From Rhizaria sp. SCN 62-66 (Eukaryota): a DNA stretch of 29,966 bases. Of this stretch, positions 4,401 to 29,293 are shown in pieces. Under the pieces are notes generated by a model. It made no database searches. It was not told where the DNA came from and was given only the letters and a program-made list of their open reading frames with translations. The stretch spans positions 62,001-91,966 of the forward strand of contig MEDY01000158.1 in NCBI GenBank assembly GCA_001724265.1, read 5' to 3'. The translations under genes and the position numbers were made by a program. The number at the start of each line of letters is the position of its first letter. Position 1 is the stretch's first letter.

Positions 4401-5465
4401 TCACTTCTTCTCAGCAGCGTTGGCGTCGGCGTTCGCGTCAGCGTTGGCGTCCTTCTTGGCGCCAAAGTTGCCGATGCGGTCAAGCTTGGTGTAGTTATTT
4501 TCGGCCTCCGCGGGCTGCTGTTGCACCTGAATGGGCTCCTGCCCAGTCATCTTGTTCTTGAGCTCCTCGCCAGTGGCGGCGAGGATGCGCAGCGTGAGCG
4601 ACTGGCCCGCGGACCACTGCGCACCGGGCGCCAGCGACACGGGGGTCGACACGGAGCCGGCCTCGACGCAGACAAACTCCTTCCACGCGTCTTCGTGCAG
4701 GTCCGCCATCGCGGCGCCCTTCTTGTGGCCGGGGTTCCACACCACAACGTCGGGCATGTTGACGGAGCGCATGACGATGTCGCAGTTGCCGCCGTCGCCG
4801 ACAGCCACAAGACCGTCCGCACGCACGCGGCCCGCGGCATCGACGGCGCCACCGCGCAGGTACACGCGGTCAACCTCGTCCTCAAACACGACGACAGGAA
4901 TTGACTGCTTGTACGTGCCGTTGTTGCGGACCTTGTCCTTGTAGCTGAGGTTGGCGAGGCCCGTCACAGTGGCCTTGTCGATGCCGTCGACGTGGAAGTA
5001 CGTGTGCAACAGCGCGGTGAAGTCGAACGCGGAATCGCCCGTGTTGCGGCACGTAAGCTGCGTTGTGATGTTGGACATGCCGACGCGCACCATGTAGAGG
5101 AGCTCGAACTCGTGCGGCCACATGGCGCGGGTCTCTTCGTTGGCAACGAGGCGGAACGTGCCGGTGCAGTCGCCCGTAGAGACGTCGTGCTCCTCGCCCT
5201 CAAACGTCCACATCTGCGTGCGGGCAAAGCCGTGCTGCGGCAGCGCGTTGGCGCCAGAGCCGGGGCCGAACTGGGGGAAGACGAGCGGGATGCCGCCACG
5301 GATGGGCTTGGAGCCATCCATCACAGCGTTCTTAGACATGAAGAGCAGGTTCTGGTTGAACATCTTCCACGACGTCACCGTGGCACCAAAGAGACTCACT
5401 GTCACATCGGCTTTGCCCGTGTGGTGTGACAGCGACACGGTCTCAATCTTCTTAGGGGCAGACAT
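4401..5465 (-). CDS. Glucose-6-phosphate 1-epimerase (D-hexose-6-phosphate mutarotase, aldose 1-epimerase family)
   Basis: Motifs GATVTSWK, PIRGGIPLVFPQFG, LPQHGFAR, FTALLHTYF, EVDRVY, DVVVWNP, FVCVEAG are typical of this family. The ORF-track start at 5504 is TTG; first ATG is 5465 (MSAPKK). Ends TGA. Confidence 0.93.
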   Translation of the reverse strand: MSAPKKIETVSLSHHTGKADVTVSLFGATVTSWKMFNQNLLFMSKNAVMDGSKPIRGGIPLVFPQFGPGSGANALPQHGFARTQMWTFEGEEHDVSTGDCTGTFRLVANEETRAMWPHEFELLYMVRVGMSNITTQLTCRNTGDSAFDFTALLHTYFHVDGIDKATVTGLANLSYKDKVRNNGTYKQSIPVVVFEDEVDRVYLRGGAVDAAGRVRADGLVAVGDGGNCDIVMRSVNMPDVVVWNPGHKKGAAMADLHEDAWKEFVCVEAGSVSTPVSLAPGAQWSAGQSLTLRILAATGEELKNKMTGQEPIQVQQQPAEAENNYTKLDRIGNFGAKKDANADANADANAAEKK

Positions 5466-9300: not shown

Positions 9301-12300
9301 GCGGCGTGCGCGTGTGTGTGCGTGTGGTTCATGTGCGCGAGCGAGAATGACCCGTTGGAGGACGAGGATGCGGTGAGGGACGGTGTGGACAGCAGGGCCG
9401 GTGCAGTAAGGCCGCCTCCCATGCTGTCGTCGCCGCCAGAGGGACCGAGACCCAGCGCGGCGCGCGCGGCCGCGGCGGCGGAGGAGGAATCGTCGGCCTC
9501 AGGCGCACGGTGAGTCGACGCCAGCCACGAATCCGCCGCGCTAGAACTAGCGCATAAGTCATCAGTCGCAAAACCATCGCCGTTGTTGTTGTTGTTGTTG
9601 TTGTTGTTGCCTGCAACCACACTATCGGCGTTAAGACGGCCCAACGCGGCAACGGGCGGCAAACCTGCATGTAGCGCCCTCACCGTGCAATCCCCGTCGG
9701 AAGTGGTAGGAGAAGCGGTGTTGTGCGCGTTGAGCGGCGGTAGCGGGAGCGCTGCTGCGAGACAGAGCCTGCGCTGGACGTGGCGGAACACCAGCCGCTG
9801 GCGCGCGTGCTCGGCCGCGTCTGCGGCGGCCGCGGCGGCGTGCGCGGAAAGCGCGATGATGATGTGTGCGAGGCCGAGAGACATCATCGTCGCAAGCAGG
9901 AAGAGAATGAAACCAGGCGCGGCAACAACGACGATGTCAGCGAGGAAGAAGCCCGCGTCGAACGCCGCCACAGCGGGGCCGGCGCCGGCGGCGAGCCCGG
10001 CGGCGGCAGCGGAGAGCGTGTTTGCGATCACACCCGCGGCAGCGCCGCCGGCGCCGGTGGCAACGGCGCTGGAGTTGGTGATGGGAGCGCCGACGTTGAC
10101 GCGCATGCGGAAGCCGACGACCATGAAAAGCATGACGTAAGCGTCGATCATGGACCACTTGCCGAGCACGTCGACCCAGTGTAGCATGCGGGCGCGCGTG
10201 GCCGGCGACAGCTTCGAGACGGGCGCGGTCCAGCCATACGCCATTAGCAGCAGCTTGAGGTAGGGCCAGATACCGGAGAACGCGACGATGAGCGCAAAGA
10301 GGTAATATACACCAGCAAACCACATCTCCATCGCCGTGGAGACGAGTGTGAAGTCAAAGACGGAGCCCATGTCCAGCACGGTCGCGTCTGCGGGCACGCC
10401 GGGCCCGCTGGGCTGCAGCCGGAGCTGCGCCGTGACGCACGCGCCCGTGCTCGAGTTGGACGCCACGAACAGCGAGATCGTGAGGAAAACGGCGAAAAGA
10501 GCGCCGAAACGCAGCGGAGCAGGGATAAAAGGCGTCAGCAGAAGCGGGGAGCCGTCAGCTTCGATCACGGGCACCGTCGCAGCAGCGGCGCCAGAGCACC
10601 CGCACTCGCACTGAGTCCCAGTCGCAAGCGCTCCAGTAGCAGTGGCTGAGTCAGAAGATACAACAGCAGCGGCAGTGTCGTCAGCGCTCAGCAGCAGCGG
10701 CGCGCTCGCACCTTCGCGCTCACTGCGCTTGCCGCCCTTCGCACTGGAGCCAGAAACGATAACTGCATTAACACTTGCATGAGCGTTATTCGTCTTGTTG
10801 CTGTGTACGCACGTGTACGGGAAGTGCGCGCATACCGCGCGCTCGCGCAACGGCGCACTCGCCCCCGCATTCGCACTCGCGTCTTGAGCGGCCTTGCTTC
10901 CGCTCGCGGACACCGCGGACACAGCGGCGTCGTCAGAGGCCTCGTTCGCAACGCGGCGGCCGCGCTGTTGCCCGCGCGAGCCGACCAAGTGCACGAACAG
11001 CAACAGACACGCGGCGCTGGCGGCGCTGATAACGGCCAGGAAGAGCCCCCATAGCGCGACGCGCACCGCGGACGCGACTGCGCCCTCGCTGGTCGAAGCT
11101 TCACCGGGGACGGTGACGCCCGCGCAGACGTACGGCGCGCGGTCGCCCATGTACCGCAGCGCGGCCGTGGCGGCGGCGGCGACTTCCTTGGCGTGCTCGC
11201 GGAGGAACTTGTTGACGGCGGCGGCATCGGCCAGTCCACCCGCGGACGCGCCCCAGGGCTCGTGACCGGGGGACGCGATGAGTGAAAAAGACAGAGAGAA
11301 GTTACCCATTGTGGTGTCGGAGGAGAGCAACTCGACGCCGGACGCCTCGCGGGGACGCTTGCCGAGAGAAACCGCTTCAGCAACACCGGCGTTGTTCCTA
11401 GGACTGTCGGTGAGCCAGCTCGCAGCGGCGCCGGGGAAAGCGAAGCCGAGCGCAGGACCGAAAATATCACCCAGCGTCGTCGCAGAAGCACCGGGACTGA
11501 CTGCACGCAACTTGCTCCCAGTAGCCTCGCCGCCACTATTGATGCTTGCCGGGTCGTCTTCGGGGAGGTCGGCCTCGGTGACCGCGAGCAGCGTGGGCAG
11601 GCAACCGAGGCGGACCACGCTGGTGAGCGGTTGCCGCAGCAGCAGCAGCCGGTCCGCGGGCGCTAACAAAGCGAAAGCTGTGGTGAAGTTGGCCAGAGAT
11701 GCCGCGAATGAAATGTCGATTGACCGGACGCCGACCGGAAGAGTCAGTGACGCAGACACGGCCAGAGGACCAGCGCCCGCGGGCGGCAGGTCAGCAGCGG
11801 CCAGGCCGGCTGTGGCTGCGGTCCCCGCAGCAGGCTCTGCAGTAGCGCCGAAAGAAAGGGCCTGGAACAGAGTGTCGCCGGCACGGTGTGTGTGGGTAGT
11901 CGCGTTGAGCAAGTCGACAATGTCGAATGAGTCGAGGCCGGAGAGATGAAGAGAGTGGAGCGTGACGTCGATCAGCGAATCCGTTACCGAGTCAAGCAAC
12001 GACTTTGACGCCGACTCAACAGTATCTGCAGCAGAGTCAGAAACAGACGCAGAATCGGAAACAGACACAGAAGCAATGTTTAAGCCCTTAAAGCGCTCGC
12101 CGGCTGCGGCAGCGGTGACAGCGCCAAAGAGACTCTTTCTCGTACTTAGCTCTTTCTCGCGGTCGTAATCATACCGTCCATCGGGCGCAAAACAGCGGAC
12201 AACCTCATCCAGCCCCGCCGCGCCGCGCACGACGTCGCCGACAAGCCAACGCAGCAGTCCCGCAAGCCAGTCCGAGGACCAGTCAATGCGGTCGCGCGCG

Positions 12301-14384
12301 GTCAGCGGCGGCAGCGGCGGGCCCGCGGCCGTGGCGGCGGCGCAGTCGGCGGGCGCGGTGTGGACGGCGGTCGCCAGCGCGGTGTTGGCCGCGGGACGGG
12401 CCATCTTGTCCAGCGCGGCGTCGATGAGCAGTGAGGCGAGACGGCCGACACGGTCGGGATGCAGTGCGAGCGCGAGGAGATTGTTGATCAACCGGTCTAA
12501 ACCGGCTTCGAGTGAGTCGGGGGCTACGTCCAGCGGTGTGAGGGTCGCAGTGTAAGTGCCGTTGACGCTGAGCCGGCCCAGCGCGGCGTCGGAGCACAGG
12601 GCGAGCAGACAGGGACCGGCGGAGGCCGCGAAACTGCCCGGCGAGCGAACACTCGCAGACTCTGACCCAGAGACAAACCCAGACTTAGACTTTGACTCTG
12701 GCGTCGGCTCTGGCTCAGGCTCGGGGTCCGGCTTGGGCAGAGGCGTGGGGTCAACAATCTGATACAGTCGAACGTCCTCGGCGCGCTCAGGGTCGATTAG
12801 CGGGCGTAAATCTAGCTGCAGCGCTGGGGCGGCAACAGTGAGCGAGACGTTGAACCTCTCATCCAGCTCCTGGCCGTGGAAAGTCTCCGAATCCACCGGT
12901 TTGATGTGCAACCGCATTCCGGGCAGCGCGAACGCGACTTCACCCAGTGCGAAACCTGAGAGGAACTCAAGTGGCCGCGCCTTGGGCGACTGATGCAGCA
13001 GCTGCGCGCGTGTGAAGGAAGTTAAACCGCTGAGCGAGAGCAGTGGTACGGCGAGTGTGATGGTCGCGATGCCGGGGATGAGCACCGAGACGTTTGTTCC
13101 CTCGCGCATCAGAGGCACAGGGAGCACTCCAGTCCCGTCGGTGAACACGCGCATCGCGCAGTTGAGGCCCGAGGCGTCGCGGCCGAAAAACCCGCCGGTG
13201 GCGCCCTTGACGTCGTCGCCGCCGCCGGAGCCATGCAGCGCCGTGTCGAGTAAGGTTAGAAGAGGAACAGAGGCCCAGTCAACGGCGCGCGCGGCGGCGG
13301 CGGCGGGCGGCGGCGGGAGCGGGCGGGCGGCGGCGTGGACCAAAGGCTCCGCTCTGGCGCGCATGCGGCGAATCGACTCAGTGCCGTTGACCGCAGTAAG
13401 CTCGGCCAGAGCGGGACAGACCTCCCTGCTGATGAGGCCCTCGATCGCGGACTTGATGACGGGCTTGAGCAGCGATAAGATGAATCCGGAGATAGTGGGG
13501 CCAAACGTCAAGTCGAAGTCGAGTTTAAGCGTGCAATCATCGAGCCGGACCGCCGTAGGCCACAGGCGGCGCAGTTTGAGCTGCTCGTCGTCGCCCGTCG
13601 CGTTTGACTGCAGCGCCAGCGCGGCCGACGCGGCGCCGTCGTGCGCGGTGACCGTGAGCTCAACCTTATCAGTGAACGAGATAGACGGCACAGTGAACGT
13701 GACGCGCCCGGCACAGACCGTGCCGAGTCCAGATAAAGACAGCGTAAGCGCGGCAACGTCGTCGGGCTCCCGCAGCGGCGGCTCAAGCTGCTGCGAGTCA
13801 AGTGTCTGCAAGGCGATCCCGTGGCACGATAAATGCTCCAGAGTGCCGTGGACGGCGCTGGTGTTGAAGTCTTGGGGCGGGACCGAAAAATTGAGGCTCG
13901 CAAGCCAGCACTGCAGAAGACCGTCGCAGTCGTCGCGGAGACGCGCGCGGCCCGCCGCAAACGCAGCGCTGGCAGCACTGGCACTAGCACTGTTGCCGCC
14001 GCGAGAGTGATGAGCGCTAGGGCGATTGTGGGAAGGCTCGGGGGATTTGTAAGCGAGCCACTCTGTGATCACAGAGAGATAGTCGAAGTCGTTAGCATTG
14101 CTCGCAGACAAGCCAGCAGCAGCACCAGCGTCGTCGTCGTCGTCATCATCGGTGACTGTGATCGCAGGATCTGTTGTTTCTGTGGCATACTTGTAAGCAC
14201 TGTTGGATGTTGCGGAGGGAGTCAATGCTGAGGCTGACTGCGGGGCGCATAAAGACAGCAGTAGCAGAAGCGCGGCAACGCGGAGTGTAAAATGGAGTAA
14301 ATGCCTGCGTGGGGCGGGACCTGGGGGCGCGGAGCGGGCGCGCGCAGGCAGGGGCGGCTCTGGTGGTTGTGCAGCGTCACCCAT
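6321..14384 (-). CDS. Giant multi-pass membrane protein: signal peptide, large extracytoplasmic region, two paraquat-inducible protein A (PqiA)-like domains
   Basis: 2687-aa uninterrupted ORF, ATG to TAA. Hydrophobic signal-like segment (VAALLLLLSLCAP). PqiA-like unit 1 at ~10365-9850 (LIVAFSGIWPYLKLLL...LGKWSMIDAYV) and unit 2 at ~7690-7130 (FSLFMPLGY...LFAWSSLEVFFIS); both echo the PqiA 'WSMxDVF' signature. Confidence 0.75.
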   Translation of the reverse strand: MGDAAQPPEPPLPARARSAPPGPAPRRHLLHFTLRVAALLLLLSLCAPQSASALTPSATSNSAYKYATETTDPAITVTDDDDDDDAGAAAGLSASNANDFDYLSVITEWLAYKSPEPSHNRPSAHHSRGGNSASASAASAAFAAGRARLRDDCDGLLQCWLASLNFSVPPQDFNTSAVHGTLEHLSCHGIALQTLDSQQLEPPLREPDDVAALTLSLSGLGTVCAGRVTFTVPSISFTDKVELTVTAHDGAASAALALQSNATGDDEQLKLRRLWPTAVRLDDCTLKLDFDLTFGPTISGFILSLLKPVIKSAIEGLISREVCPALAELTAVNGTESIRRMRARAEPLVHAAARPLPPPPAAAAARAVDWASVPLLTLLDTALHGSGGGDDVKGATGGFFGRDASGLNCAMRVFTDGTGVLPVPLMREGTNVSVLIPGIATITLAVPLLSLSGLTSFTRAQLLHQSPKARPLEFLSGFALGEVAFALPGMRLHIKPVDSETFHGQELDERFNVSLTVAAPALQLDLRPLIDPERAEDVRLYQIVDPTPLPKPDPEPEPEPTPESKSKSGFVSGSESASVRSPGSFAASAGPCLLALCSDAALGRLSVNGTYTATLTPLDVAPDSLEAGLDRLINNLLALALHPDRVGRLASLLIDAALDKMARPAANTALATAVHTAPADCAAATAAGPPLPPLTARDRIDWSSDWLAGLLRWLVGDVVRGAAGLDEVVRCFAPDGRYDYDREKELSTRKSLFGAVTAAAAGERFKGLNIASVSVSDSASVSDSAADTVESASKSLLDSVTDSLIDVTLHSLHLSGLDSFDIVDLLNATTHTHRAGDTLFQALSFGATAEPAAGTAATAGLAAADLPPAGAGPLAVSASLTLPVGVRSIDISFAASLANFTTAFALLAPADRLLLLRQPLTSVVRLGCLPTLLAVTEADLPEDDPASINSGGEATGSKLRAVSPGASATTLGDIFGPALGFAFPGAAASWLTDSPRNNAGVAEAVSLGKRPREASGVELLSSDTTMGNFSLSFSLIASPGHEPWGASAGGLADAAAVNKFLREHAKEVAAAATAALRYMGDRAPYVCAGVTVPGEASTSEGAVASAVRVALWGLFLAVISAASAACLLLFVHLVGSRGQQRGRRVANEASDDAAVSAVSASGSKAAQDASANAGASAPLRERAVCAHFPYTCVHSNKTNNAHASVNAVIVSGSSAKGGKRSEREGASAPLLLSADDTAAAVVSSDSATATGALATGTQCECGCSGAAAATVPVIEADGSPLLLTPFIPAPLRFGALFAVFLTISLFVASNSSTGACVTAQLRLQPSGPGVPADATVLDMGSVFDFTLVSTAMEMWFAGVYYLFALIVAFSGIWPYLKLLLMAYGWTAPVSKLSPATRARMLHWVDVLGKWSMIDAYVMLFMVVGFRMRVNVGAPITNSSAVATGAGGAAAGVIANTLSAAAAGLAAGAGPAVAAFDAGFFLADIVVVAAPGFILFLLATMMSLGLAHIIIALSAHAAAAAADAAEHARQRLVFRHVQRRLCLAAALPLPPLNAHNTASPTTSDGDCTVRALHAGLPPVAALGRLNADSVVAGNNNNNNNNNGDGFATDDLCASSSAADSWLASTHRAPEADDSSSAAAAARAALGLGPSGGDDSMGGGLTAPALLSTPSLTASSSSNGSFSLAHMNHTHTHAHAAVVPPGLLTPSRARPSAAAAATAAAAAAEASAVPATAGASLVTRGSVTRLAVSVGGFLHQAATFALPPRAFAELAAGRQHPALARREHDSDRERERRGNSAAASARAQSINSGLTGSAHSDIINNADDDDDADADNEGTGAAEDALAGADAEALSPESAEAIAAAEAEAELAVRALGIVFSQRELAAAAAAATAAAATLPANESVNATTETAGASASSASVPHDAAHLAVFLAAYDDVSAIVARRCRRRTRRRSRHSAAARTAAAAAAETDDGAGTAVYDGGAVARSLLTASPGKQQRRARSQERAPSRLITAVTAAGDSNAGGASEPEDEAATAAAAAAAAAESAAEARTVERVLSAFAATVDPYLRDLDSRRSMYRQDHAIDAAALPAHAKRAAAAAAAAGAGRSRSRSRSRARHGDGDSDGARDWEVATPALLPLRAPDGGLLVPGAQSLPPLPSPSSGASASSLTMPLPPMHKGAEKPFFTHATATATATTSAGSSSVGADGVSRVSGFYATRTRAKAPPRFALFVRFTALGRAMMLTLLLGTIALIVYASIIPAFEFEFTGLTGWLLGSAGHRPVSLIDIGVYMARDTADPDALATRWMQAVYFIFSLFMPLGYALCMCAAWMLPLTVSRHLKLQVLSDVLFAWSSLEVFFISVTATVGQITTLAGFMVGDNCDAINVILEDNFADLLQGTNKCFELAARFTWGSWVVLAASLVFLLLGSLVSRLSQAALSARLERMRLLWRRQQYAPAFDALATLPTAAAGLARAAAVPAEARAPASAAPVGWEGECARVDARLAAVLAESEPGVYSPVLFAPSAATATAAAFDVSSETSAAPDVRLGSCDASFDDPVAWAAARHAAGAEAAGAAEAAETAANAGAAVGATMTKAEQSRARLQRARERAALPCLLRARLRLLAVGRALGLISVTIAPTTATVATVRAWKEELMPPPGASPAAASPVCNTFADINSSKAPWAATGKDRTVLDFDSARA
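9582..9609. repeat. (GTT)n microsatellite encoding poly-Asn in the PqiA-domain protein
   Basis: Run of nine GTT units read directly; translates as NNNNNNNNN on the minus strand. Confidence 0.9.
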
Positions 14385-15124: not shown

Positions 15125-16759
15125 TCAAGACGCAGAAGTGTAGAAATGGTTCTGCTGGAGGTTAAATCCGACCTCAATCACTGCATTGACAAACCCGCCC
15201 AGCACGGGGATATACGCCGCGATGTCCGCAATCGCCTGCAGGGGGACGACCGTGACTGCGTCGAACACCGGCGAGCGCAGCAAGTAGAACAGATACAGCC
15301 TCCTGCGCACTGCCCACGCGGCCGACTGCGCCGGCGACAGCTCACTGCCCCGCGCCGCCAGCGCGTAAGCGATCGCGTCGACGGCCAGCGACGCCGCCAG
15401 CGGCAGCCACGCCTGCGCGCCGAACTTGAGCTTCAGCGCGGCGTACACCAACGGACGCGCCCAGTACAACGCTTCTCCGAGCGCGGCGCCGGCTGGGGCC
15501 GCGGTGCGGGCGCGCTCGCTGCGCGGCGCGGCCGAGGTCGGCGCGGGCGCAAACTGGCCGTGAGGCAGCGCGCCGCGGCCGTGGCGCTGGTATAAACGGC
15601 GCAGAGAGGCGCCCGCGAGCGCGGCGAGGGGCTCCTCGTCGCGGCCGTTCGCGCCGGTCACAGCGGACACTGCGGCAAGCGGGTCCCCCGTCACACTAGT
15701 AGCTGCCGCGGTATTCACGGCTGTGGCGGAGGCGGCCGAGTCGCTGCCACCAGTGACAGCCGTCGTCGCAGCGGCGGCGGTGGCAGCAGCGGCGGGGGTG
15801 GTGACTGTTGTCACGTCAGCTGCAGCGTCATCATCTGCGCCGCCGTTGTTTTTGTTGTTGTTGTTGTTTGCAACGGCGGCTTTGTGAGCGCGCCAGATGG
15901 CCGACAGATGCGCCGCCTGTGCGCGCGCGCGCTCTGCCGCGGCCCTCTCAGCCGCCTCCGCCGCGAGCTCCGCCTGGCGTTGCGCGAGCTCAGCGTGCAC
16001 GTCCGCCGCGTCGGCCGGCAGCAGCATCTTACCGCGGTTGCGCCACAGCAACAGCAGCCGCAGCAGGAGCTTCGCCGCCTCGACCGCGACGACTGCACGC
16101 ATGCGGAACCTCTGGGTCGCCGCCGCGAATCGCGCCAACAAGGGCGCCTGGAACGCGGCGCCAGGTGTGGCGGCGAGCAGGGCGGCACGCTCGGGGGCGC
16201 TGCGGGTCGAGTGCCAGTGGCCGGCCGCGAGCTCAAGCAGACACTCTGAGGAAGAGATGACGAAGAGGAGCGCGTTGAGGATGCGGACGGCGCCGGGCTC
16301 GCGCGCGGTGAGCAAAGCGGGGCGGCCCGAGAGCTTGAGGCGCGAGGGATGAGAGCGTGGACGTGCGCAGATGCCGTCATGATAGTATGACAGCAGGCAG
16401 AGGCCCATGTAGGCAAACTCACCGCGCAAGTCCGTGTCGGAGAAGCGGCCAGGGAGGAAGACGGAGAAAGTCTTGGCGGTCTCGAGCAGACCGGTGTACC
16501 AGGCGGACTCGGCGACAAAGGACTCGTAGCGGGAGACGAGCGAGCGCAGGAGGCCGACGAACGAGAGACGGGGCTCGGACGACGCGGCGGGGGCCGCAGC
16601 AGCAGAAACAGCAGCAGAAACAGCAGCGGCGGCGCGGGGTGCGGGGGAGAGACTGCTGCTGCTGGTCGTCAGAACAGGCGTGGGGGCCTGCTTCGAGACC
16701 GCATGGGCGGAGGACTCGGCGGCAAAGACTGCCGGGGGCGTCGGCGTCGGCGTCGACAT
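15125..16759 (-). CDS. PEX16: Peroxisomal membrane biogenesis protein PEX16
   Basis: LPGRFSDTDLRGEFAY...LLSYYHDGI, ECLLELAA, VEAAKLLLRLLL, GEALYWARPLVY, WLPLAASLAVD, RRLYLFYLLRSPVFD and C-terminal IPVLG...HFYTSAS match the Pex16 pattern. ATG to TGA. Confidence 0.9.
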   Translation of the reverse strand: MSTPTPTPPAVFAAESSAHAVSKQAPTPVLTTSSSSLSPAPRAAAAVSAAVSAAAAPAASSEPRLSFVGLLRSLVSRYESFVAESAWYTGLLETAKTFSVFLPGRFSDTDLRGEFAYMGLCLLSYYHDGICARPRSHPSRLKLSGRPALLTAREPGAVRILNALLFVISSSECLLELAAGHWHSTRSAPERAALLAATPGAAFQAPLLARFAAATQRFRMRAVVAVEAAKLLLRLLLLWRNRGKMLLPADAADVHAELAQRQAELAAEAAERAAAERARAQAAHLSAIWRAHKAAVANNNNNKNNGGADDDAAADVTTVTTPAAAATAAAATTAVTGGSDSAASATAVNTAAATSVTGDPLAAVSAVTGANGRDEEPLAALAGASLRRLYQRHGRGALPHGQFAPAPTSAAPRSERARTAAPAGAALGEALYWARPLVYAALKLKFGAQAWLPLAASLAVDAIAYALAARGSELSPAQSAAWAVRRRLYLFYLLRSPVFDAVTVVPLQAIADIAAYIPVLGGFVNAVIEVGFNLQQNHFYTSAS

Positions 16760-17815: not shown

Positions 17816-20800
17816 ATGTTCAACTGGCTTTTCAAAAAGCGCAGCAAAACCCCGCCGGAGCACTCCGCGTCTGCAAGCCCACGCAACGCACGCCAGTCCT
17901 CGCCGGCGCCGCCGCCACCGTCACATAGCTTACCCCCGACACCCCGTCTCAACACCGCAACAGCAGCGCAGCGCCATGGCAGCACACCGCGTCCCCCCAC
18001 CGGCGGGAACCAGAGTGAAGCATGCGCGGCGGACTGCGGGGCTGGATGCCGGTGCGCGTGGTCGCCGCCGCCGGTGTTCCGCGGTGGCACGCCCACGCCA
18101 CAGGCGCTGGCAGCGGATGCGGCCGCCGCGACAGAGCGCCGCCGCCGCCGCTCGCAGCATAGCCGTCAAGGACACGGCCACGGACACGGACACGGGCATA
18201 GCCACGGTAGCGGCAGTGAGCATACAACAAGTGATACGAGTAGCGGGGGGAAGATGCGCGACGACGCGCACTCGCAGTCCCACTAGCAATCGCACACACA
18301 TGCGCATATCCCGGTGAAAGAGCTCGGTGACAAAAGCAAAGTGCAAGATGTTCAAGAGCACAGCGGTGACCGCGAGCAGGAAGAGCGCCCCATTGACCCG
18401 CGCTTAGACGCTGAGTCCGTACACTCTGCTGCACAGTCGTCAAAAGCACCGTCGAAAGCGCCCTCTAAAGCGCCGTCAACAGTGTCGTCGCACGCTGCAT
18501 CTTTAACCCCATGGACACAGGCCCAGCAGCAGGCACAGTTACAGCCGCAGCAGCAGAAGCTCCAGTCCCCGCGGCCTCTCGCGACATGCGCTGCGTCTGC
18601 CGGAGTCACGCCAATCATCAGTAGTGCGCACCCGTCGCCAGTCCTCGCGTCACCCATGCCTGCGCCGCCGCCACCAGCAACTGCGGGCGGCGCCAGCGGT
18701 GGCGGGACAACTGTAAGCGCAGCCGAGTCGTCGGTGGCGGCGCTGCGGCGCGCGCACGCGGACGAACAGCGACGCCGTGCAGTGGCGCAGGCACGCAGTG
18801 CGCAGAGGGCGTTCGAGGCGCAGCAGCGGCAGAAGCAGCGCCAGCTCCAGCGACACCAGCAGATGGAGCTGCAACAGCAGCAGCAGCAGAGTGTGCGGAT
18901 CGATAGCAGCCGCGGCGATGTCAGCAGCGGTGGTGCGGCGATAAGGGAAGTCAGCAGTGGCAGCGAAGGTGACAGTAGCAGTCTCAACGACAGCGCAGAC
19001 AGCGACGACGACTCAGACAGCGGCAAGAAAGCGACAAAGCCCAGCGCAAGCGCAGCTCTAGTACCTGGCATCATTCCCACGTCAGCGCTTTTGACCGCTC
19101 GCGCGCGCGCCAGCAGCGAGTCGGCTGCGCGCCCCTCTGCATCGACAGCCGCTGCCACTGCGTCGAACGCGCAGCCACCCACACGCACAGCTGCAGGCTC
19201 GACAACAACGGCGACGACTACAGCAACAACAGCAGCGACTGGTGGCATTGGGCAGACGCGCGAGTCGCTGCGAAACACACTGGCTCCGGCGCAGCAGAAC
19301 ACCGCGGGCGCGGCGTCACTGCCACCCACACCGCCCGCAGTCCGTAGCTCGCGCAAAGATCGCACCCGCGCGCTCCCACCAAGCCCGCGTCAGTCCGCGG
19401 CGACAGAGACTGCAGCAACGGGAACCAGTGGCGTTGGTGTGGGGCCCGCGAGTGCAGCGGGGAGTGGAGTGGGCGAGCGCAGTGTGTGGTTCACGAGGCC
19501 TGGCGCGAGCCCTGCAGCGCGTGCACGCAGATATGGCGCGACACCGCCTGTTCCAGTTCTGGTCTCTCCTGCAACTACGGCCGCCGTGACGCCGTCAGCA
19601 ATCAACAGCGACACACAGCATGTGCTCGCACAGGGAACCGAGAGCGTATACAGCACACCCGCCTTCACGCCCACGTTGGCACCCATGAGTGGCAAGTCAC
19701 TGCGCGCGGCAAACAACGGTTACGCTGCTGCAAGCAACGGGCGCGATGTTGCTAACAACGGACGTGCTGCAAATGGGCGCGCGCGCACGTATGAAACTCC
19801 GACGCCAGCGCCCACAGCGCAGCGCGCGCCCGTGTCTCTCTGCGCGCCGGCAGCGTTGTCATCAGCAATGTCAGAGGCAGCTGGAGAAACGGGCGATGAG
19901 GTTGAGCTCGCTGAAATCGTTCCTGTCTCGACCGCAATCACAACAGAGAAGGCATCGGCTGCAACACCAGCAACAACAGCAAATGGAAGAGCTGGACGCC
20001 CAACGCCTTCGCTCTACTCAACACTGCTGCGAACACCGGTAATCACTCCGCTGCCATCTTCGCTGACCACCGCTGCGACAACAGCTAGAGCAGCAGCAGC
20101 GGGACCGCATATCGCCGATTTGCGCATCGCTGTCTCGCCGCCCGCGGCCGCCACGCCCGACATCGCTGTCTCAGCGGCTGAGGCCGCCGCCACGGAAGCT
20201 GCGGCGCGCGCAGCGGCAGCGTATACTGCCTCAGTCGAAGCCGCATCCTCAGCAACAAACGCACATCACAAGGCAGCAAAGGGAACAGCTCCAACAGCAA
20301 CACTGCAACAAAGTGCTGGCATTGGTGCTAGATCTGGCGCAGGTGCAAGTGACATTGTTGGCGGAGGCGGCTGGAGCGGTGGACTGGCGGGCGCAGTGTC
20401 AACTGCGATCACGGCGCACCGACTTGGGCTTGCGCCGGGTGCGGCGGCGACTGCAGCTGCGGCGGAGGCTGCGTAGGCTGCGGCCGCGCACGAGCGTCGC
20501 CAGCGCCGTTGGCAGTTGCGCCGGGAGCAACGCCACGCGCAGCACCGGAAGCAACGCCACAGCAGTGCTACTGGCGAAGAGAGCGACCGTAAACACGGTG
20601 GCGAGACAAGCAGCGGTGACGACAGCGACGACGATAACGATGACGACGCCTATGATGACGACACAGAGAGCGGCGGGCCGGGGTCGCCGTACTGGGATGA
20701 ATACGGACAGGTGGCTTACGGACCGGGCCGTTGGTGGTTGCGCGACCAGCGCCGTCAGCAGCAGCAGCAACAGCAGCAGGAGCAACAGAGTTCTTATCAC

Positions 20801-21940
20801 GTGCACGGACACAAAGATGAACACAGCCACAGACATGCGCACGGACTGCGCAGCAACGCAACGGCGCGCGCGCACCACAGCAGCCATGCAGTTGTTCAAG
20901 CCACAGCATAGCAACAGCGGTGCAGCGCGTGTGGCCCGCGGGCGCGCTCTGTTCTGTGGTTCATTGCACGCCTCATACCAGCAGCAATCGTAATCGGACT
21001 AGCGGCCGGGCTGGGGTGCGCGCTACACGCTGATTCGGGCTCGCGCGCGCTGTTTCTGGCGTTTATACTCGCAGCGTGGCTGGCAGGCACAGTCGTGCAC
21101 GAGGCAGCGCACGCGCTTGTCGCGGCCGCATACCATCACGTCGTCGTCAAACCCTCACAAGCAGATCAGCAAGAGCATCGCCATCGCAGCGTAAGCGCGG
21201 ATGAAGGCAGCATCGAGGCCGAGATTGCGAAAGAAAATAAAAACAGCGGCAGCAGCAGTGGCGAGGTGTGGGGGAACGTGCTGAAGTATGAAACCCCCGC
21301 GCAGTCGCTCCTGCTGCCCTTGGTATTCCTGTTGTTGGGAGTCGTCGCACTGCCCGGACCCGCGCCTGCGTTGCGCCCGCGCACGCGCCTCCGCGCCAAC
21401 GCCGACGACGACGCTGCAGTCGAGAGCAACGATGACGGCGACGACATCGACGGCGGTGTCAAGTTAGCGTCCGACAACAGCTGCCGCGGCCGGTGCTGGC
21501 GCGTGGTGGCCGCGCTCGCGGGCCCCGCAGGGTCTCTGCTGGCGGCGTGCGTGTTCGCGGCGCCGCTGTGGGCGCAGGGCGGAGCCTCCGCGGCCCCCGA
21601 GCGCGGCGCGGGCGCCTGGGCAGGGCTCGCGCTTGCCGTGAGGCTGCAGCTGATGGCGACAGTGCTCGCGCTCGTCCCAGTCCCGGGCTCGGACGGGGCC
21701 GCGGCGGTCTCCGCGGCGCTGCCCGCGGCGCTCACGCGCGGCCCGCGGCTGCTGCCGGAGACGGTCTTCAGTCGCCGCGCACGCACGCTGGTGGTGGGCG
21801 TGGGGTCCGTGGCGCTGTTTGTGCTCGTGTGGTGTCTGCCGGGAGGATCCAGCTGGGCCACGGACGCCGCGGTCGGATTCGGGGTGCCGCGTGGAGACGT
21901 TGAGCACGGGCTCACGCGGTTCAGGCTCGTCAAGATGTGA
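17816..21940 (+). CDS. Site-2 protease (peptidase M50) family membrane protein with ~1000-aa low-complexity N-terminus; contains three in-frame TAG codons (18284, 20474, 20909)
   Basis: Track ORFs 17795-18286, 18314-20476, 20516-20911 and 21095-21940 are all in one frame and are separated only by single TAG codons. Start gccATG at 17816, end TGA; 1374 aa when TAG is read as sense. C-terminal domain has TM segments, LAAWLAGTVVHEAAH (HExxH), VAALAGPAG and LALVPVPGSDG (variant of NLLPxxxLDG). Confidence 0.78.
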
Positions 21941-22573: not shown

Positions 22574-25500
22574 ATGCGGCCCTGCAGCAGCCCCATCAGG
22601 CTGCTCTCATCTGCCGCCCGCACACACCGCACGCCCTTGCGCGTTTTTACTCTCCTATCCCTTTTTGTTGCCGTTCTGCTCGCTGCGTCACCCGCCGCAG
22701 CCGCGCCCTCCGTCTCCCACTACTCGCCGTCCGCCGCGTCTTCCACCGCTTCAGCTACGCAGGGCGTGGTCGGTGCGGATGCCGTGGGCGTGCTCGACGA
22801 CGCCAGCATGCTCTACGGTGGCGGCGCAGTGCTAGACGACGAGGACGACGTCTTCAACGACCCCTTGCTTTACGCTCGCACACACAGCTCGACTCACCGC
22901 ACCGCCTCCTCAAACTCTGCCACAGCCGCAGCCGCGGCAGCAGCGGCGGCATCGCGCGCGTCGGGCGCCGGCAACGGCGGGTACAAGGGCTACCCGCGCT
23001 CCGGCGCCACGTCACACCCGCCGCGCGCGGCCTCTGGGATTGGGTCACTTGGAATCACCGCCGACGCCGCCGCCGCGGCAGCCGCAGCCGCGGCCGCCGA
23101 CGCGCTTAGCGGACGCGGCTCGCCCGCAGCCACGGCCGCCGCGGGCGGTGGCGCGGGCTCGAGCGCGAGCGCGGCGGACACGCTTGCGGCGGACTCTATG
23201 GCTGCGACATCACGCTTCCTCGTGGATCTGACGATCATCGCAGCGTCGCAACTCTTCTTCTTCGCTGTCGGCTGGGTGTTTTTCCAGTCTAAGCTGCTCC
23301 ACAGCTCCCACCTCGACGAAGCGACCGCCGCGGCTGTGGGCGCCGCTATTGGGGCCGCCTCGGGGCCTGGCGCCACAGCGGGCGCCGTCGCCGCGGCCGG
23401 CGTGCTGCCCCTGCCGGCCGCTCTCAGCGCCGTCTCACTCGACGACACGACGGGCGGCGGCGGGATCGGCTCGGCGACGGCTGCGGCTGCTGTTGCAGCG
23501 GCCGCCGGAGGATCGCCGTCTGTTGCGTCGCTACGACTGCGGCTGCGGCTAGTGCGCGCGCTTTTCTCCCTCACGTTCACTCTCTCCTGCTCGATGTTCC
23601 TTCTGATGCTGTTTGAGATCGCGGATGTGATGGATAAACGCAGTCGCTTGCTCAACTGGCGGCTTGACCTGACGGCGCTGCTCGTGCTGCTCATCTTCGT
23701 CATCCCAAACCTCACCATTTTTTCGGTCCTCACGCGGTACGCGCGGGACACGCGCCGCGCCGCTGCGCTCACTCTCGCTCTTTACGCACTGACTCTATAC
23801 GGCCTCTCAGCGCTCGCGTCGCCGCTTAACCTCACCATCACCACGGCCGCGCCCGCCGCCGGGGCCGCTGTCGGCGCCGCGGCCGACACTGCTGCAGCTG
23901 CAGCCGCCGCAGCCGCCGCAGCCGCGACCGCCTCCGCGTCCGCCGCAGCCGCCGCGGCGCGTGAGTCGGCCCCGTCCCTCCTCTGGTGGCTGTTCGAGTT
24001 TGACCGCGCTTTGGCGCGCATTGGCGTCGTCGGCGTCACGTCCATCGCCATTCTATCCGGGTTTGGCGCTGTCAACTGTCCTTACGAGTACCTCGAGGTG
24101 TTTTTGCGCAAGGTTGACCCGGCTCAGATCGCGCTGTCTGAGCGCCGTAGCTAGCGAGCGGCCACTTTATCGACCGCAAAGAAGCGCCTGTTAGTCGCGC
24201 TGATCAGGTTCCGCACGCGGAGGGACCGCGCGAACGCCGCCGCCGCTGCTGCTGCTGCTGCTGCTGCTGCGGGTGCGAGTACGGGTGACGCGACCGCGCA
24301 GCAGCAACAACAGAACGAGTTGCAGTTGCAACAGCAACAATTGCAGTACCAGTATCACCAGCAACAGCAACAGCAACAGTTTGGCTACCCCGTGGCTCCC
24401 TTCGGCGCGGGCCCTGCATTCAACAACGCCGGCACCTTATACGGACCACACCCGCAGCCGTATCTGACGGGCCAACCTGCGCCTCCGCAGCAGTTCCAGC
24501 CTCATTACCCGCGTCAGTACCAGCCTCAGTACCCGTTTGCGCCCATCCCCGCACCCGTCCCCGCGCCCGCGCCTGCTCTGCATTGCGCTCCTGTGACCGC
24601 CGCCTTTGCATCGCCGCCGCAGCCGGGCAACCCCGGTTTGTACGCACCGGGCGGCGCGGGGCCTGCTGACGCGCTTCTGTTACTGCCGCCGTCCGCGCTT
24701 GAGTCGGAGCCGTCTTCCCCCGCCGCGTCGCTACGCGCGATCCCCGACGAGGAGATCGGGCTCACGCTGCGGTCTGGCAGCAGCAGCGCCGGGGCGCGCA
24801 CGCGGACGACGGCCGCACAGCAGCGAAGGCCGGCGCAGACGCAGACGCAGCCGCTCAGTCACGCGCAAGCTCTGACGACACAGTCTCCGCAAACCACCGG
24901 ATTTGACGGGAGCGTGATTCACGGTGCAAAGACTGCGGGGATGAGTGCCAGAGCGCCGTATGCGCCGCTGCCGCTGGGTCTGGCGCCGTCTCCGCTTGCG
25001 CTTACACTGTCGGGCTCCTCGGCAGCGACTCTCATTGACCCCGCGCCCTACCAACAACAACAGCAACAGCAGCAGCAACAGCATGTTCGGCACCCGTATG
25101 CATACGCGGGGCCTGGTATCGCGTCGCTCGGCTTTGGCTTTGACGCGAACGCCGGCATTGACGCTACGACCGCTACTGCTGCTCCTGCTCCTGCTCCTGC
25201 TGGGGCGGGTGTAGGGGACGTGTTTGTTGACCCGTATTTGGCTGATGGTCACGCCGGAGACAACGCATACGGCTACGGTTACAACGACAATGATGCGGCT
25301 TACGGCGGGATCAGCTATCCTTTTAGCCCTGTCGGCGCCGACGGCGGCTTTGCTTACGACGAGTACGGTCAATTCTCCGGAGGCCACCCCGGACAGTACA
25401 GTCATTTCGGGCAATACGGCCAGTTCGACGACGACGCTGCGTTGTTAGAGCAACCGTTGTCGTCTTTCGCGTCCGCTGGCTACGCCGCTGCCACCGCGGC

Positions 25501-27994
25501 CGCCGCAGCCGCAGCCGCCGCCGCCGCGGACGCTGGCGCCGACGCCGACGCCCAGGCCCTCGCGGCCGCCGACGCCGCCGAGGCCGCCGCGGGCGCGGGC
25601 GTGGGCGGAGGCGGCGGCCGCGGGCTTGGCGGCGGACTCGCTGCGCTGCTCCCGGAGCCGGAGCAGGAGCAGGAGGCCGGTGCCGGCGCCGGCGCAGGGT
25701 CCGCGTCTGCTCTCACGCGCGGTGTTCAATCGGCCGGCTCACGATCACGTGGCAGCGTGAGCGCTACTGTCAGTGGAGCAGTCACAGAGGCACTTGGTTT
25801 CGTGCTCGGCCGCACAGTCGATGACGATGACGACGACGACGACGACGACGACAATGAGGGCGACGGCAACGCTGTGCGCATGCAGCGTCTACGGCTGGGG
25901 GGCGAAACTGACGCCACGGGGGTGCGGCGGACTCTGCTGACCAGCGGCGGCAACGCAGGCGCTCACAGTCACGGTCACGGGCCTAACGGTGGGCTTGCGC
26001 TGGGGCGCGGGCTGGGTCGGGCGCTAGGTCGGTCTGCCGCCAACTCTGACGACAACGACGATGACGATGATGACGACGACGGAGACAATTCGGACAACAT
26101 TGCGGTCAACGGCGACGGCGCTGGCGTCGACAGCGCTAAATCTGGCGATTCTACCGCTGTCTCTGGCGCAGGCGCTGGCGCAGGCGCTGGTGCAACGGGG
26201 ACTGGGGCGCGCCGCAGCCGCGCACAAGACCGCGAGCGCGAGCGTGAGCGCGAGTGGGCTCGCAGCCGCCGCGCGCGCGCACGTGCGATGGCTGACGTTA
26301 TGGCCGCTGCTGATTTCGACAGTGGCAACGCAAGCAGCACACACACACAACACACCGCGAACGCTGCGATGCATAGCATGGCGGCCCCACGCGCGCTGCT
26401 CCCGCGGTTTGACTCTGCGGCATCAGCGGCGTCCGCGGCGGCGGGCTTCTCCGATGCGCAGTCGAGTTCGTCTGAGACTGCACCGACTGACGCTGATGCC
26501 GACACGAGGCGCGCGCGCCAGTTCCCTGCGCCGCTGCTGCAGCCGCACCCGCAATACGCGCAACAGCAGCAACAACAGCAGTACTATGGTGCGCCTGTCG
26601 CCTACACTCAGCATCAGCAGTTATATAGTTACCCTGCGCTTGCGGGGCCAGCGGGGGGCTTTGCTCCTGGCCTTGGTCCCCACGGCCACGGCCACGGCGC
26701 TCCCGCTTATGCTGGATACCCGCCTCCCCCTCAGGGATATGGTGCTGCATACCCGCCGTACATGCAACAACAACAGCATTCCGCGTTTTCTCACCCCGCA
26801 CACTTTGCGAATGCCCAGGCGCAAGCTCACGCTGCTGCGATGCAGCAACAGCAGTTCATGCAGCAACAACAGCAACAGCAGCAGTTCCAGCATCAGCCGC
26901 ATCCTTTGCCCGACGCCTCCCAACAACAGCAACTCCAAACCCGGTCTGACGAGTCACACCAAGTGGAACTACAGTCGCACGCGCTCGCGCCTGACCAGAG
27001 CCAGAGCCAGAGTCAGGCGTACGGCCCCGACTGGCCTGACTGGGACGCCCCCGAGTGGGCGTGGCTGGGGGCCTCTCGCGCGCATCCTCCCTCCGCCGCA
27101 GCGACTGAGCGCGGTGTCTCACAGCTTTCCGTCGAAGTCCGCGCTCTCGAGGAAGTCCGCGCGTTTTACCACAGTGACCATGCTGCGCTGCTCGCCGGCC
27201 GCGGGCTGCAGCTCCGCGCGCGCACGCTACGCGGCCGCCTCACAAACTCACTGGGTTACCTACTCTCGCTCTTCTGTCTGTATAAGATCCTAACTTCGGC
27301 CGCGAACGTACTGTTGCGGCGCGCGGCGCGCACGGACCCTGCCTCGCGCGCGATCCAGCTTTTCCTCGAGTACGTGCTCGACCTAGACATCGACGTGCGC
27401 ACGTGGTCGCAGCACCTGTCGTTCGTCATGGTCGGCGCGCTCGTCGCGACGCAAATGCGCGGTTTCCTGCTCTTCATCGCCAAGGTTTTCCGCGCGTGGG
27501 CCGCTTTCATGACCGTAGACGCAGTGTTGCTTCTGCTGACGGAAGTCATGGGGACGTATTTCCTGTCCATGGTGCTGCTTCTGCGCGTGAATCTGCCCAC
27601 GCAGTACCGCCGCGTCATCACGAAAGTGCTTGGCAAGATCCAGTTCTCGTTCTACCACCGTTGGTTCGACGCTATCTTTGTCGTTTCCGCACTGCTTACG
27701 ATTGTCACGTTTGTCGTCTCGCGCAGGGCCGCTAGATCCAGGCTCGTGGACACTGGCTTCGCTCCGAGGCGCTCTACTGCAGCCCACGCTGGCCGTGGCG
27801 CGAGTGCGAGTGCGCGGGACAACGGGGCGCGCCGGGGACGCAAGCGCGGTGGCGCTAGCTCTGGCACGAGCAAGAGCACTGTGCCCGGTGCTATTGCTGG
27901 AGATGGTGGCGGCGAGCGCACGACGGGCGCCGGCAGTCCGCTGCTGGCGGCGTCGCGCGATGCGGACTCACGGCTGCGGCGCAGCAAGGTCTAA
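22574..27994 (+). CDS. GPR89: Golgi pH regulator / GPR89 / GPCR-type G protein (GTG) homolog; contains one in-frame TAG (24152-24154)
   Basis: N-half: FLVDLTIIAASQLFFFAVGWVFF, LFSLTFTLSCSMFLLMLFEI, RIGVVGVTSIAILSGFGAVNCPY. C-half: RTLRGRLTNSLGYLLSLFCLYKI, DVRTWSQHLSFVMVG, MGTYFLSMVLLLRVNLPTQYRRVIT, IQFSFYHRWFDAIFVVSA. ORFs 22448-24154 and 24320-27994 are in the same frame with only a TAG between. First ATG 22574 (alternative ATG 23198 just before the conserved part); ends TAA. Confidence 0.9.
24235..24271 (+). repeat. (GCC)/(GCT) trinucleotide run encoding poly-Ala just downstream of the GPR89 in-frame TAG
   Basis: gccgccgccgctgctgctgctgctgctgctgctgcg in the continuing frame, followed by CAG/CAA poly-Gln tracts. 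Confidence 0.85.
25820..25852 (+). repeat. (GAC/GAT)n run encoding poly-Asp in the GPR89 insertion
   Basis: gatgacgatgacgacgacgacgacgacgacgac; a second similar run lies at ~26048-26080. Confidence 0.85.
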
Positions 27995-28291: not shown

Positions 28292-29293
28292 TTACGCGTT
28301 GTGGAGCGAGATGAGCTCATCAGAGATGGCCGCCGGTGTGAGGATACCGAGGTCCGTGAAGAGCAGCGTCACCAGCTCCGGCGGTGTGTAATCACTCGCT
28401 GGGTTGTACGCCACGCTCGCTGCCAGCGCGGCCGCCTTCTCCGCCGCAGCGCGCTCGGTCTCGGAGAGATTCGCGGGCATGGCGACCGACACGGGCACGG
28501 GGACGAAAGTGCCCTGCTGTTCGCGGGGCTCGAGCACGTCAAGCTGCGAGAGCGGGAACACACGCACGAAGCGGTACGACTCGGCCAGTGCGTAGAACGG
28601 CTTGTTCAGTGCCTTGGCCACCAGCGCGGTCTGGTACGTGCCAACGGACGCGATGAGTCCGCCAGACTCAACGACGCCATCGGCCGATGCAACGACCAAG
28701 TCAACGCGGCTCATGACAGCGGCCACGGCGGTGTCAGCGACGACTTCGACGGGGACGTCCGCGGCGGCGAGCGCGGCCGCGGTAGCGTAGCCGCGGCACA
28801 GCGGGCGCGCTTCGGGGACGACGACGTAGAACAGCTTGCCCGCCCGGCGCGCGTGCACCAGCGTGCGCACGAGAGTCGGCGAGTGGCCGCCCGCGACGAG
28901 CACGGTCTGCCCGTTGCGGAAGAAGCGGTTCGCCACGGCCGCCACGCGGTCGCACGCGGCAAGCGAGCTAAGTGCAAAGCAGCGGGAGCGCTCGCGCGCG
29001 GTCTCGAGAGACTCGGCCTTGGTGATGTAGTGCTGGAAGAAGTCGTAACAGCCCTTAAGCGCGACAGAACCCATGCTGAGCGAGAGACGCGCATCGCGCT
29101 GCGCGGGCGCAGAGTAGTGTGCGCGGATGGCATCCCACGCGCCGGTAACGGCGCGTCCAATGCCCTGTAGCGTGCGGTCGTCGCACGTCTCGGCCACCGT
29201 GGCCCAGGTCTGGATCGCGGCAAGCGGGACGTGGTTCTCATGCTTGGCCAAGTATGAGTGGAACATCGACACCGCGTCTGTTATGGGGAACAT
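28292..29293 (-). CDS. EIF2B1: Translation initiation factor eIF2B subunit alpha
   Basis: EARP, VADTAVAAVMSRVDLVVASADGVVESGG, GTYQTALVAKALNKPFYALAESYRFVRVFPLSQ, DYTPPELVTLLFTDLGILTPAAISDELI are characteristic of eIF2B alpha/GCN3; 333 aa, ATG to TAA. Confidence 0.93.
   Translation of the reverse strand: MFPITDAVSMFHSYLAKHENHVPLAAIQTWATVAETCDDRTLQGIGRAVTGAWDAIRAHYSAPAQRDARLSLSMGSVALKGCYDFFQHYITKAESLETARERSRCFALSSLAACDRVAAVANRFFRNGQTVLVAGGHSPTLVRTLVHARRAGKLFYVVVPEARPLCRGYATAAALAAADVPVEVVADTAVAAVMSRVDLVVASADGVVESGGLIASVGTYQTALVAKALNKPFYALAESYRFVRVFPLSQLDVLEPREQQGTFVPVPVSVAMPANLSETERAAAEKAAALAASVAYNPASDYTPPELVTLLFTDLGILTPAAISDELISLHNA

Follow-up and report, generated by a model that had tools for sequence, protein, structure and literature searches.

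Nuclear genetic codes nearly always change the meaning of UAA and UAG together. Where UAG alone has been reassigned, the listed codes give it to leucine, glutamine or serine, glutamate being absent from that list (PMC11687900). The rhizarian exLh reads UAG as Leu and Iotanema spirale as Gln, both codes being transcriptome-based, with tRNAs predicted and not found (PMC5304391), and phyllopharyngean ciliates read UAG as Leu or Gln in 78–91% of genes, with a tRNA bearing the CUA anticodon (CUA tRNA) in two genomes and three of the five coming from metagenome assemblies (PMC11687900). Glu at UAG has been reported only alongside a reassignment of UAA: in the ciliate Oligohymenophorea sp. PL0344, UAG is Glu and UAA Lys, only UGA stops and ten CUA tRNA genes are present (PMC10553269), peritrich ciliates read both UAA and UAG (UAR) as Glu (PMC11687900), and Blastocrithidia has UAR as Glu with UAA also a stop and a tRNA-Glu(CUA) present (PMC12153298). 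Here, we describe a stretch of 29,966 nucleotides from Rhizaria sp. SCN 62-66 (contig MEDY01000158.1; G000:C158:62001-91966; hereafter the window), part of a 34.9-Mb eukaryotic assembly in 714 contigs, in which a gene of the GPR89/GPHR family carries an in-frame TAG, and the nuclear code to which this TAG and others in the genome may belong.

The code that we consider probable for this genome would use UAG as a rare codon read mainly as Glu and would keep UAA and UGA as stops. It would resemble that of PL0344 in the meaning of UAG and in a CUA tRNA most similar to tRNA-Glu, but would differ in that UAA and UGA both stop, one CUA tRNA was found, the organism is a probable rhizarian and the genome has a GC content of 61–65%. 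With exLh, likewise rhizarian, and Iotanema it would share the reassignment of UAG alone with UAA still a stop, the proposed amino acid being Glu rather than Leu or Gln. Phyllopharyngeans also reassign UAG alone, but not to Glu, and UAG is very rare here, whereas peritrichs and Blastocrithidia share Glu at UAG but have Glu at UAA as well. Since the genome is GC-rich, AT drift cannot be the driver. No description of a code in which UAG is Glu and both UAA and UGA stop was found in the literature searched, which covered few subscription journals, and such a code goes unmentioned in the passages searched of two recent rhizarian papers (PMC12930898, PMC13746701).

That UAG is a sense codon genome-wide can be stated with very high confidence. 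Seven contigs, picked for holding the window, the CUA tRNA or the release factor eRF1, or for large size, supplied 710 kb of unbroken sequence (~2% of the genome). Following 40 coding-like codons, the first stop encountered there was TAG in 17 cases, TAA in 59 and TGA in 62, and coding went on past it for 9/17 TAG, 0/59 TAA and 0/62 TGA; an earlier codon-score run over 620 kb gave 11/18, 0/47 and 0/50, respectively. Stops flanked by coding sequence on both sides numbered 12 for TAG and none for TAA or TGA in the 710 kb, and 14, 0 and 0 once 251 kb of loci, partly overlapping and partly selected for TAG, were added. After long open reading frames (ORFs), the median distance to the next TAA or TGA was 217.5 codons following TAG (n=22), 23 following TAA (n=49) and 15 following TGA (n=72), in a set that includes some antisense frames and in which five TAGs had a TAA or TGA within 40 codons. 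Looser codon-score runs flagged one TAA, antisense of PEX16, and one TGA, probably in the wrong frame or strand. Eight TAGs were non-continuing, of which four appeared intronic by eye and four stay open for 25 to >120 codons. Internal TAA or TGA numbered 0 in the 710 kb, unlike in codes with UAR as Glu, no search for a UUA tRNA having been made. In-frame TAGs lie inside the conserved coding sequence of many genes, including eRF1, TTLL9, GPR89 and kinases, and all seven genes of the window terminate in TAA (4) or TGA (3).

The amino acid is best indicated by sites outside the window. An eRF1-family search returned one eRF1 gene and one pelota-like gene, and the former (L032; G000:C63:101870-105199, minus strand) carries a TAG within its own stop-recognition domain that aligns without a gap to human Glu107, a column occupied by E in 106, D in 10, V in 1 and Q in 0 of 117 homologs (120 listed, minus three long fused records). 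The same locus in another genomic contig (L167), assembled separately, agrees at 1626/1626 bases; this contig was rejected as a transcript since it contains introns, the two measured ones of the gene being 134 and 292 nt long. In TTLL9, 101 of the 118 homologs that cover the TAG column have E there and 0 have Q (120 examined). A Gln reading at these two near-invariant Glu columns would be hard to explain. When E, Q, K, S, Y and L were compared, Asp being left out, the Pfam bits summed over seven sites were 543.5 for E, 542.0 for Q, 541.4 for K, 536.3 for S, 531.6 for Y and 529.2 for L; nine more stretches bearing or neighbouring a TAG gave no new Pfam domain across it. The residues neighbouring 12 rule-selected TAGs gave an E-Q score of 19.1, which 0/300 Gln controls reached, with D, E and K ranked top and Q next to last.

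A candidate decoder is encoded on the same contig as TTLL9 (Table 1). A search with a CUA-anticodon pattern that allowed long variable arms gave five matches at four places, one of which folds as a tRNA, with an Rfam score of 58 bits; in a DNA search this gene is single-copy, and it lies between ordinary host-like ORFs. ARAGORN labels it tRNA-Pyl, a label that follows the anticodon only and that we rejected, given that G18G19, a 5-bp anticodon stem and TTC are all present. The hallmarks of tRNA-Pyl are a small D loop without G18G19, a 6-bp anticodon stem and a T loop without TTC. Compared with the genome's own tRNAs, a limited comparison with 63 of 506 candidates scored and a possibly incomplete assembly, the CUA tRNA is closest to Glu(CTC) (47/73), followed by Glu(TTC) (40), Asp (39), Leu(CAG) (36) and Gln (33 and 29); a tight pattern for the own tRNA-Glu found nothing, and a looser one gave Glu(TTC). 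It shares the acceptor pairs U1-A72, C2-G71 and C3-G70 with the own Glu tRNAs. Its 4-nt variable loop, U11-A24, U13-G22, A46 and A37 are identity elements of E. coli tRNA-Glu, as is the anticodon base C36 (PMC9976931), a listed determinant that it lacks. The own Gln(CTG) has both D-stem pairs too, but another acceptor stem and position 46. In the anticodon loop, the CUA tRNA has C32-A38 where the own Glu tRNAs have C32-C38. In engineered human tRNA-Glu, C32-A38 raised UAG suppression more than 20-fold (PMC12204705), and a natural Glu amber suppressor with this feature would parallel engineered therapeutic tRNAs.

In keeping with a Glu isotype, the phage matches of this tRNA that carry an annotation are tRNA-Glu in 6 of 6 cases, among 15 matches listed with weak E-values. 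As to its origin, the CUA tRNA (L036:1489-1561, minus strand) and a tRNA-Glu(UUC) from an actinobacterial plasmid (L215:150-223) have identical D arms and agree at 54/73 positions overall. An exact copy of D arm plus anticodon was found in 0 viral and 0 prokaryote contigs, and no donor was found among them. With a D arm closer to bacterial tRNA-Glu than to that of the host, the tRNA may have been acquired from a bacterium or an organelle; 73 bases cannot prove such a transfer.

The release factor itself is altered. Relative to the 117 homologs, eRF1 shows T32S (T in 117), G57S (G in 117) and T58K (T in 116), with M34V, L124M, L126M and K130Q as further changes (human numbering). T32S falls in the GTS motif; the G of UAG is bonded by Thr32, and Iotanema, with Gly at this position, alters the same residue (T32G there, T32S here) (PMC5304391). 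P0007, the closest relative (84% identical), shares T58K and M34V but retains T32 and G57, leaving T32S and G57S as candidate causes, and its intact GTS motif makes T32S a directly testable one.

It is plausible to suggest that the altered eRF1 N domain reduces UAG recognition, with T32S, alongside G57S, T58K, M34V, L124M, L126M and K130Q, weakening recognition of the third-position G, and that the CUA tRNA is expressed and charged by glutamyl-tRNA synthetase. TAG codons would have arisen by single changes, silently from GAG and as missense from CAG, TTG or other neighbours, the latter tolerated in variable or low-complexity places; a partial origin through such missense changes would account for mixed contexts and for a site like that of GPR89. 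The UAG in the eRF1 gene may act as feedback, residual UAG termination lowering eRF1. We offer only tentatively, as a rather unlikely history, that a stop-to-Glu change has been caught early here, with UAG nearly gone as a terminator and returning rarely, one possibly bacterial or organellar tRNA, and feedback between eRF1 and UAG.

Turning to the GPR89 gene, translation confirmed the frame given in a preliminary description of the window, with the TAG at 24152-24154 (codon 319) as the sole stop from the ATG at 23198 to the TAA at 27992-27994; the true start is uncertain because the frame is open upstream as far as an ATG at 22574. GPHR_N, for which a search gave 581 relatives at E≤0.001, and ABA_GPCR occur in family order, both above the Pfam cut-off, and the latter is intact, in line with the earlier statement that the C-terminal transmembrane half shows no decay. 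Compared with the GPR89/GPHR and plant GTG family, the product has an insertion of ~1000 amino acids (aa) and a helix that lacks one residue and diverges where the TAG lies. The preliminary description held that the spacing between ERR and AKKR is kept without a gap if TAG counts as one residue, which did not withstand the alignment: the KKxL block lies at offset 34 in 57 of 70 scorable homologs and at the window's offset of 33 in 4 of 70, and allowing a gap of one residue lifts the score from 52.2 bits to 63.7, a second gap placement giving 60.2. Its view that homology runs straight through the stop stands insofar as the GPHR_N match covers the TAG, but not in the detail of the helix, where an indel and several non-conservative neighbours are found, with Ser where 80/110 homologs have Leu (151 homologs, 150 plus P0002, of which 110 were usable for having the anchor motif and enough length).

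The residue at this TAG depends on the register. The best one (63.7 bits) aligns it chiefly with Leu and Met (L 43, M 18, Q 8, E 1; n=110) and the next best (60.2 bits) chiefly with Gln (Q 59, H 11, K 10, E 2; n=110), and the Pfam bits hardly respond to the residue (Q 69.1, E 69.0, K 68.7, L 67.3). For these reasons, the amino acid cannot be read from this site, which would point wrongly to Leu or Gln; it speaks for the TAG being translated, not for Glu. Hence it is not the cleanest single test site that it was taken for, a better one, and the best here, being the UAG of eRF1, and the decisive evidence lies outside the window, in eRF1 Glu107, TTLL9, the CUA tRNA and the stop statistics.

Translation of the GPR89 TAG is almost certain. 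Sequencing runs with at least half of the window's words come from three studies, labelled, where a label exists, as bioreactor or wastewater metagenome, and contigs of the RNA runs may contain DNA. A contig of the DNA run X3, which belongs to study P2 and is thus separate from P1, the possible source study, spans 23311-24227 with 0 other letters, 0 gaps and the TAG unchanged. An intron that would remove the TAG was looked for, and 0 of 162 in-frame GT-AG pairs of at least 20 nt spare both ERR and KKRLL, so that, as first proposed, the codon appears to be read rather than removed. There is indeed no nearby downstream ATG, the first in frame being at 24941 (TTG 24320, CTG 24188). Splicing out of the TAG, or a split gene, is unlikely, and GPR89 would be made at full length with Glu at codon 319.

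Several observations weigh against a uniform Glu code, starting with the two GPR89 registers and the scoring of 63 of 506 tRNA candidates described above. Among contigs of the RNA runs, none is listed across the GPR89 TAG. Only two strongly conserved TAG columns were found, those of eRF1 and TTLL9; the sites in GPR89, a NEK-like kinase and locus L161 do not fall in Glu columns, and that of a CaMK-like kinase (L119) varies among solved relatives (Ala, Tyr). Position 107 of eRF1 is Val in P0007, and the column is therefore relaxed in the lineage. The Pfam advantage of E over Q amounts to 1.5 bits only, and the CUA tRNA carries a U31-A39 pair, which reduced suppression by human tRNA-Glu (PMC12204705). 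Over 30 hand-picked sites, contrary ones included, the E-Q context score was 3.4, a mixed Glu/Gln context that 2/200 pure Glu controls (40±12) were as low as and 0/200 pure Gln controls (−50±20) as high as.

This mixed context is what an ambiguous or partly reassigned UAG would produce, with the CUA tRNA competing with eRF1 (leaky decoding) or carrying both Glu and Gln and TAGs surviving where both outcomes are tolerated. We regard this as improbable, although it fits the single CUA tRNA copy found, the position of a few TAGs 2–13 codons before a TAA or TGA, where residual stop use is possible, the frequent charging of E. coli amber tRNAs with Gln (PMC9976931) and the rarity of TAG (12 sites against 5002 GAG and 707 GAA in 132,255 training codons, and zero in five dynein frames of 3882–5164 aa). 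The sole eRF1 gene found needs UAG to be read, and efficient decoding is therefore required; no gene clearly ending in TAG turned up in the ~2% of the genome sampled; and an optimised human tRNA-Glu(CUA) inserted ~95% Glu (PMC12204705). In addition, a fixed Glu code combined with CAG-to-TAG missense changes would also predict a mixed context, because frequent C-to-T changes at CAG would give tolerated Gln-to-Glu replacements.

Less likely again is UAG as Gln with UAA a stop, the code of Iotanema spirale, Hartmannula and Trochilia, a variant that has evolved repeatedly (PMC11687900). At L161, two TAGs stand opposite CAG of paralogous copies, the TAG of the kinase L120 corresponds to Q in NEK1, one TAG terminates a poly-Gln run among other poly-Gln contexts, and the second-best GPR89 register is a Gln column. 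These sites have to be set against the eRF1 and TTLL9 columns, where Gln occurs in none of the homologs, against the rejection of a Gln context in both the rule-selected (0/300) and the hand-picked (0/200) sets, and against the resemblance of the only CUA tRNA found to the own Glu rather than the own Gln tRNAs (47/73 against 33/73 and 29/73). L161 (G000:C681:1512-4727) contains an internal repeat, a ubiquitin domain and a Peptidase_S74 domain, has a GC content of 48% and is possibly a mobile or decaying element.

A standard code, under which the GPR89 TAG would mark gene-specific readthrough or RNA editing, or would stem from a nonsense allele or a misassembly, is very improbable. The GPR89 helix is locally degenerate, and TAGs at intron acceptors are a confounder that does produce false sites, these having been removed by eye: acceptors explain the TAGs in Pfam matches to dynein (L050, L056) and kinesin (L199) and in the kinases L121, L122, L126 and one of the two in L127. 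Kinase matches (n=142) include nine with one TAG only, one with one TAA only and four with mixed stops, and kinesin matches (n=54) one with TAG, one with TAA and one with two TGA. TAG followed by C is a leaky termination context. Across the 30 sites the next base is C in 14, G in 8, A in 6 and T in 2; the genome's own GAG and CAG also often precede C, and its real stops favour G (TAA 42/59, TGA 35/62 in the 710 kb). However, independent DNA has the same letters at the GPR89 TAG and at eRF1 (L167), the excess over unrelated genes concerns TAG only, no common motif follows the TAGs and a cognate CUA tRNA exists, while editing would yield Gln (CAG) or Trp (UGG), both missing from the conserved eRF1 and TTLL9 columns.

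Finally, UAG as Leu, as in the sainouroid rhizarian exLh, a possible relative, can be dismissed as hardly credible in spite of the best GPR89 register, the grouping of the organism with Rhizaria in the TTLL9 tree and the Val of P0007 at eRF1 107, since Leu is the worst of the six residues over the seven Pfam sites (14 bits under Glu), 1/200 Leu controls reaches the observed E-L score at the 30 sites, the own tRNA-Leu is 82 nt long, unlike the CUA tRNA with its 4-nt variable loop, none of the five CUA pattern matches is Leu-type with long variable arms allowed, and the L69A change reported for exLh eRF1 is not among the differences flagged here.

If UAG is mainly Glu in this genome, as we consider probable, the finding would add a code with UAG as Glu and two stops left, outside the ciliates, and probably a second independent code change in Rhizaria, with genome, candidate tRNA and eRF1 coming together for one code. 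Annotation under the standard code truncates eRF1, TTLL9, GPR89 and kinases of this genome.

Upstream of GPR89, a neighbouring gene forms a single frame only when three TAGs are read (Table 1). The contig of the poly(A) run X5 across the TAG at 20474 was rejected as transcript proof since X5 also covers non-ORF stretches and possibly represents DNA, and X6, probably DNA as well, was rejected as RNA evidence. The product is long and of low complexity and ends in membrane segments with a HEAAH motif; this end is reminiscent of M50 peptidases, and Pfam gave no match. Elsewhere in the window, several of the kinase, aldose 1-epimerase, PEX16 and eIF2B-family genes have long Ala-rich insertions.

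Table 1. Features of the window and the CUA tRNA gene (window positions unless a contig is given)
Feature	Position	Strand	Remarks
Kinase with split domain	3-4013		Looks intron-free
Aldose 1-epimerase family protein	4401-5465		Looks intron-free
Membrane protein with PqiA (paraquat-inducible A) domain, in a eukaryote	6321-14384	minus	~2690 aa; without internal stop
PEX16	15125-16759		Looks intron-free
Neighbouring gene, 1374 codons	17816..21940	+	Single frame only when three TAGs are read; TGA end; no Pfam match
In-frame TAG of neighbouring gene	18284..18286	+	Gln/His-rich context; X6 contig across, 0 other letters
In-frame TAG of neighbouring gene	20474..20476	+	Ala/Glu context; X3, X5 and X6 contigs across, 0 other letters
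In-frame TAG of neighbouring gene	20909..20911	+	Followed by two Gln codons; X3 contig across, 0 other letters
GPR89/GPHR (GTG-type) gene	23198..27994	+	1598-codon frame; one internal TAG; TAA end
GPHR_N (PF12537)	23999..24187	+	aa 268-330; covers TAG at aa 319; Pfam E 9.5e-17
In-frame TAG of GPR89, codon 319	24152..24154	+	Predicted Glu, from genome-wide evidence and not from its own column
Low-complexity insertion	24188..27214	+	~1000 aa; Ala/Gln/Gly/Asp tracts; separates both Pfam domains; stop-free
ABA_GPCR (PF12430)	27215..27727	+	aa 1340-1510; intact C-terminal membrane half; Pfam E 3.1e-35
eIF2B-family subunit	28292-29293		Looks intron-free
CUA tRNA gene	G000:C84:76008-76080		TTLL9's contig; followed by a T run; no encoded CCA

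The organism is probably a rhizarian. In a TTLL9 tree from a single quick search, built on the query and 63 of 120 homologs without three long rows and most of the lower-ranked ones and supported by SH-aLRT only, the query, flagged for composition, fell in a nine-row clade with Plasmodiophora (93). This clade shares a larger one (99) with alveolates and stramenopiles but is separate from both groups, and the query lies away from Stentor. A sainouroid affiliation is only a lead. No polyubiquitin monomer-monomer junction, the site of the rhizarian insertion of 1-2 residues, was seen. The ubiquitin genes of five loci (L159, L160, L162, L163 and L166) begin with an extra Met-Ser, and on contig C3 ubiquitin is encoded not as a polyubiquitin but in several single copies that carry a short His-Pro-Gln tail. 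Two unrelated metagenome eRF1 loci (L180 and L181) are interrupted in the N domain by in-frame stops of TAA/TGA type and probably use ciliate-type codes. A contig with small-subunit ribosomal RNA (L058; G000:C706:4459-8903), whose binning is provisional, is very divergent by eye and contains four group I introns; its first insert (~L058:2070-3060) is long and seems, by eye, to contain an ORF, which perhaps encodes a homing endonuclease.

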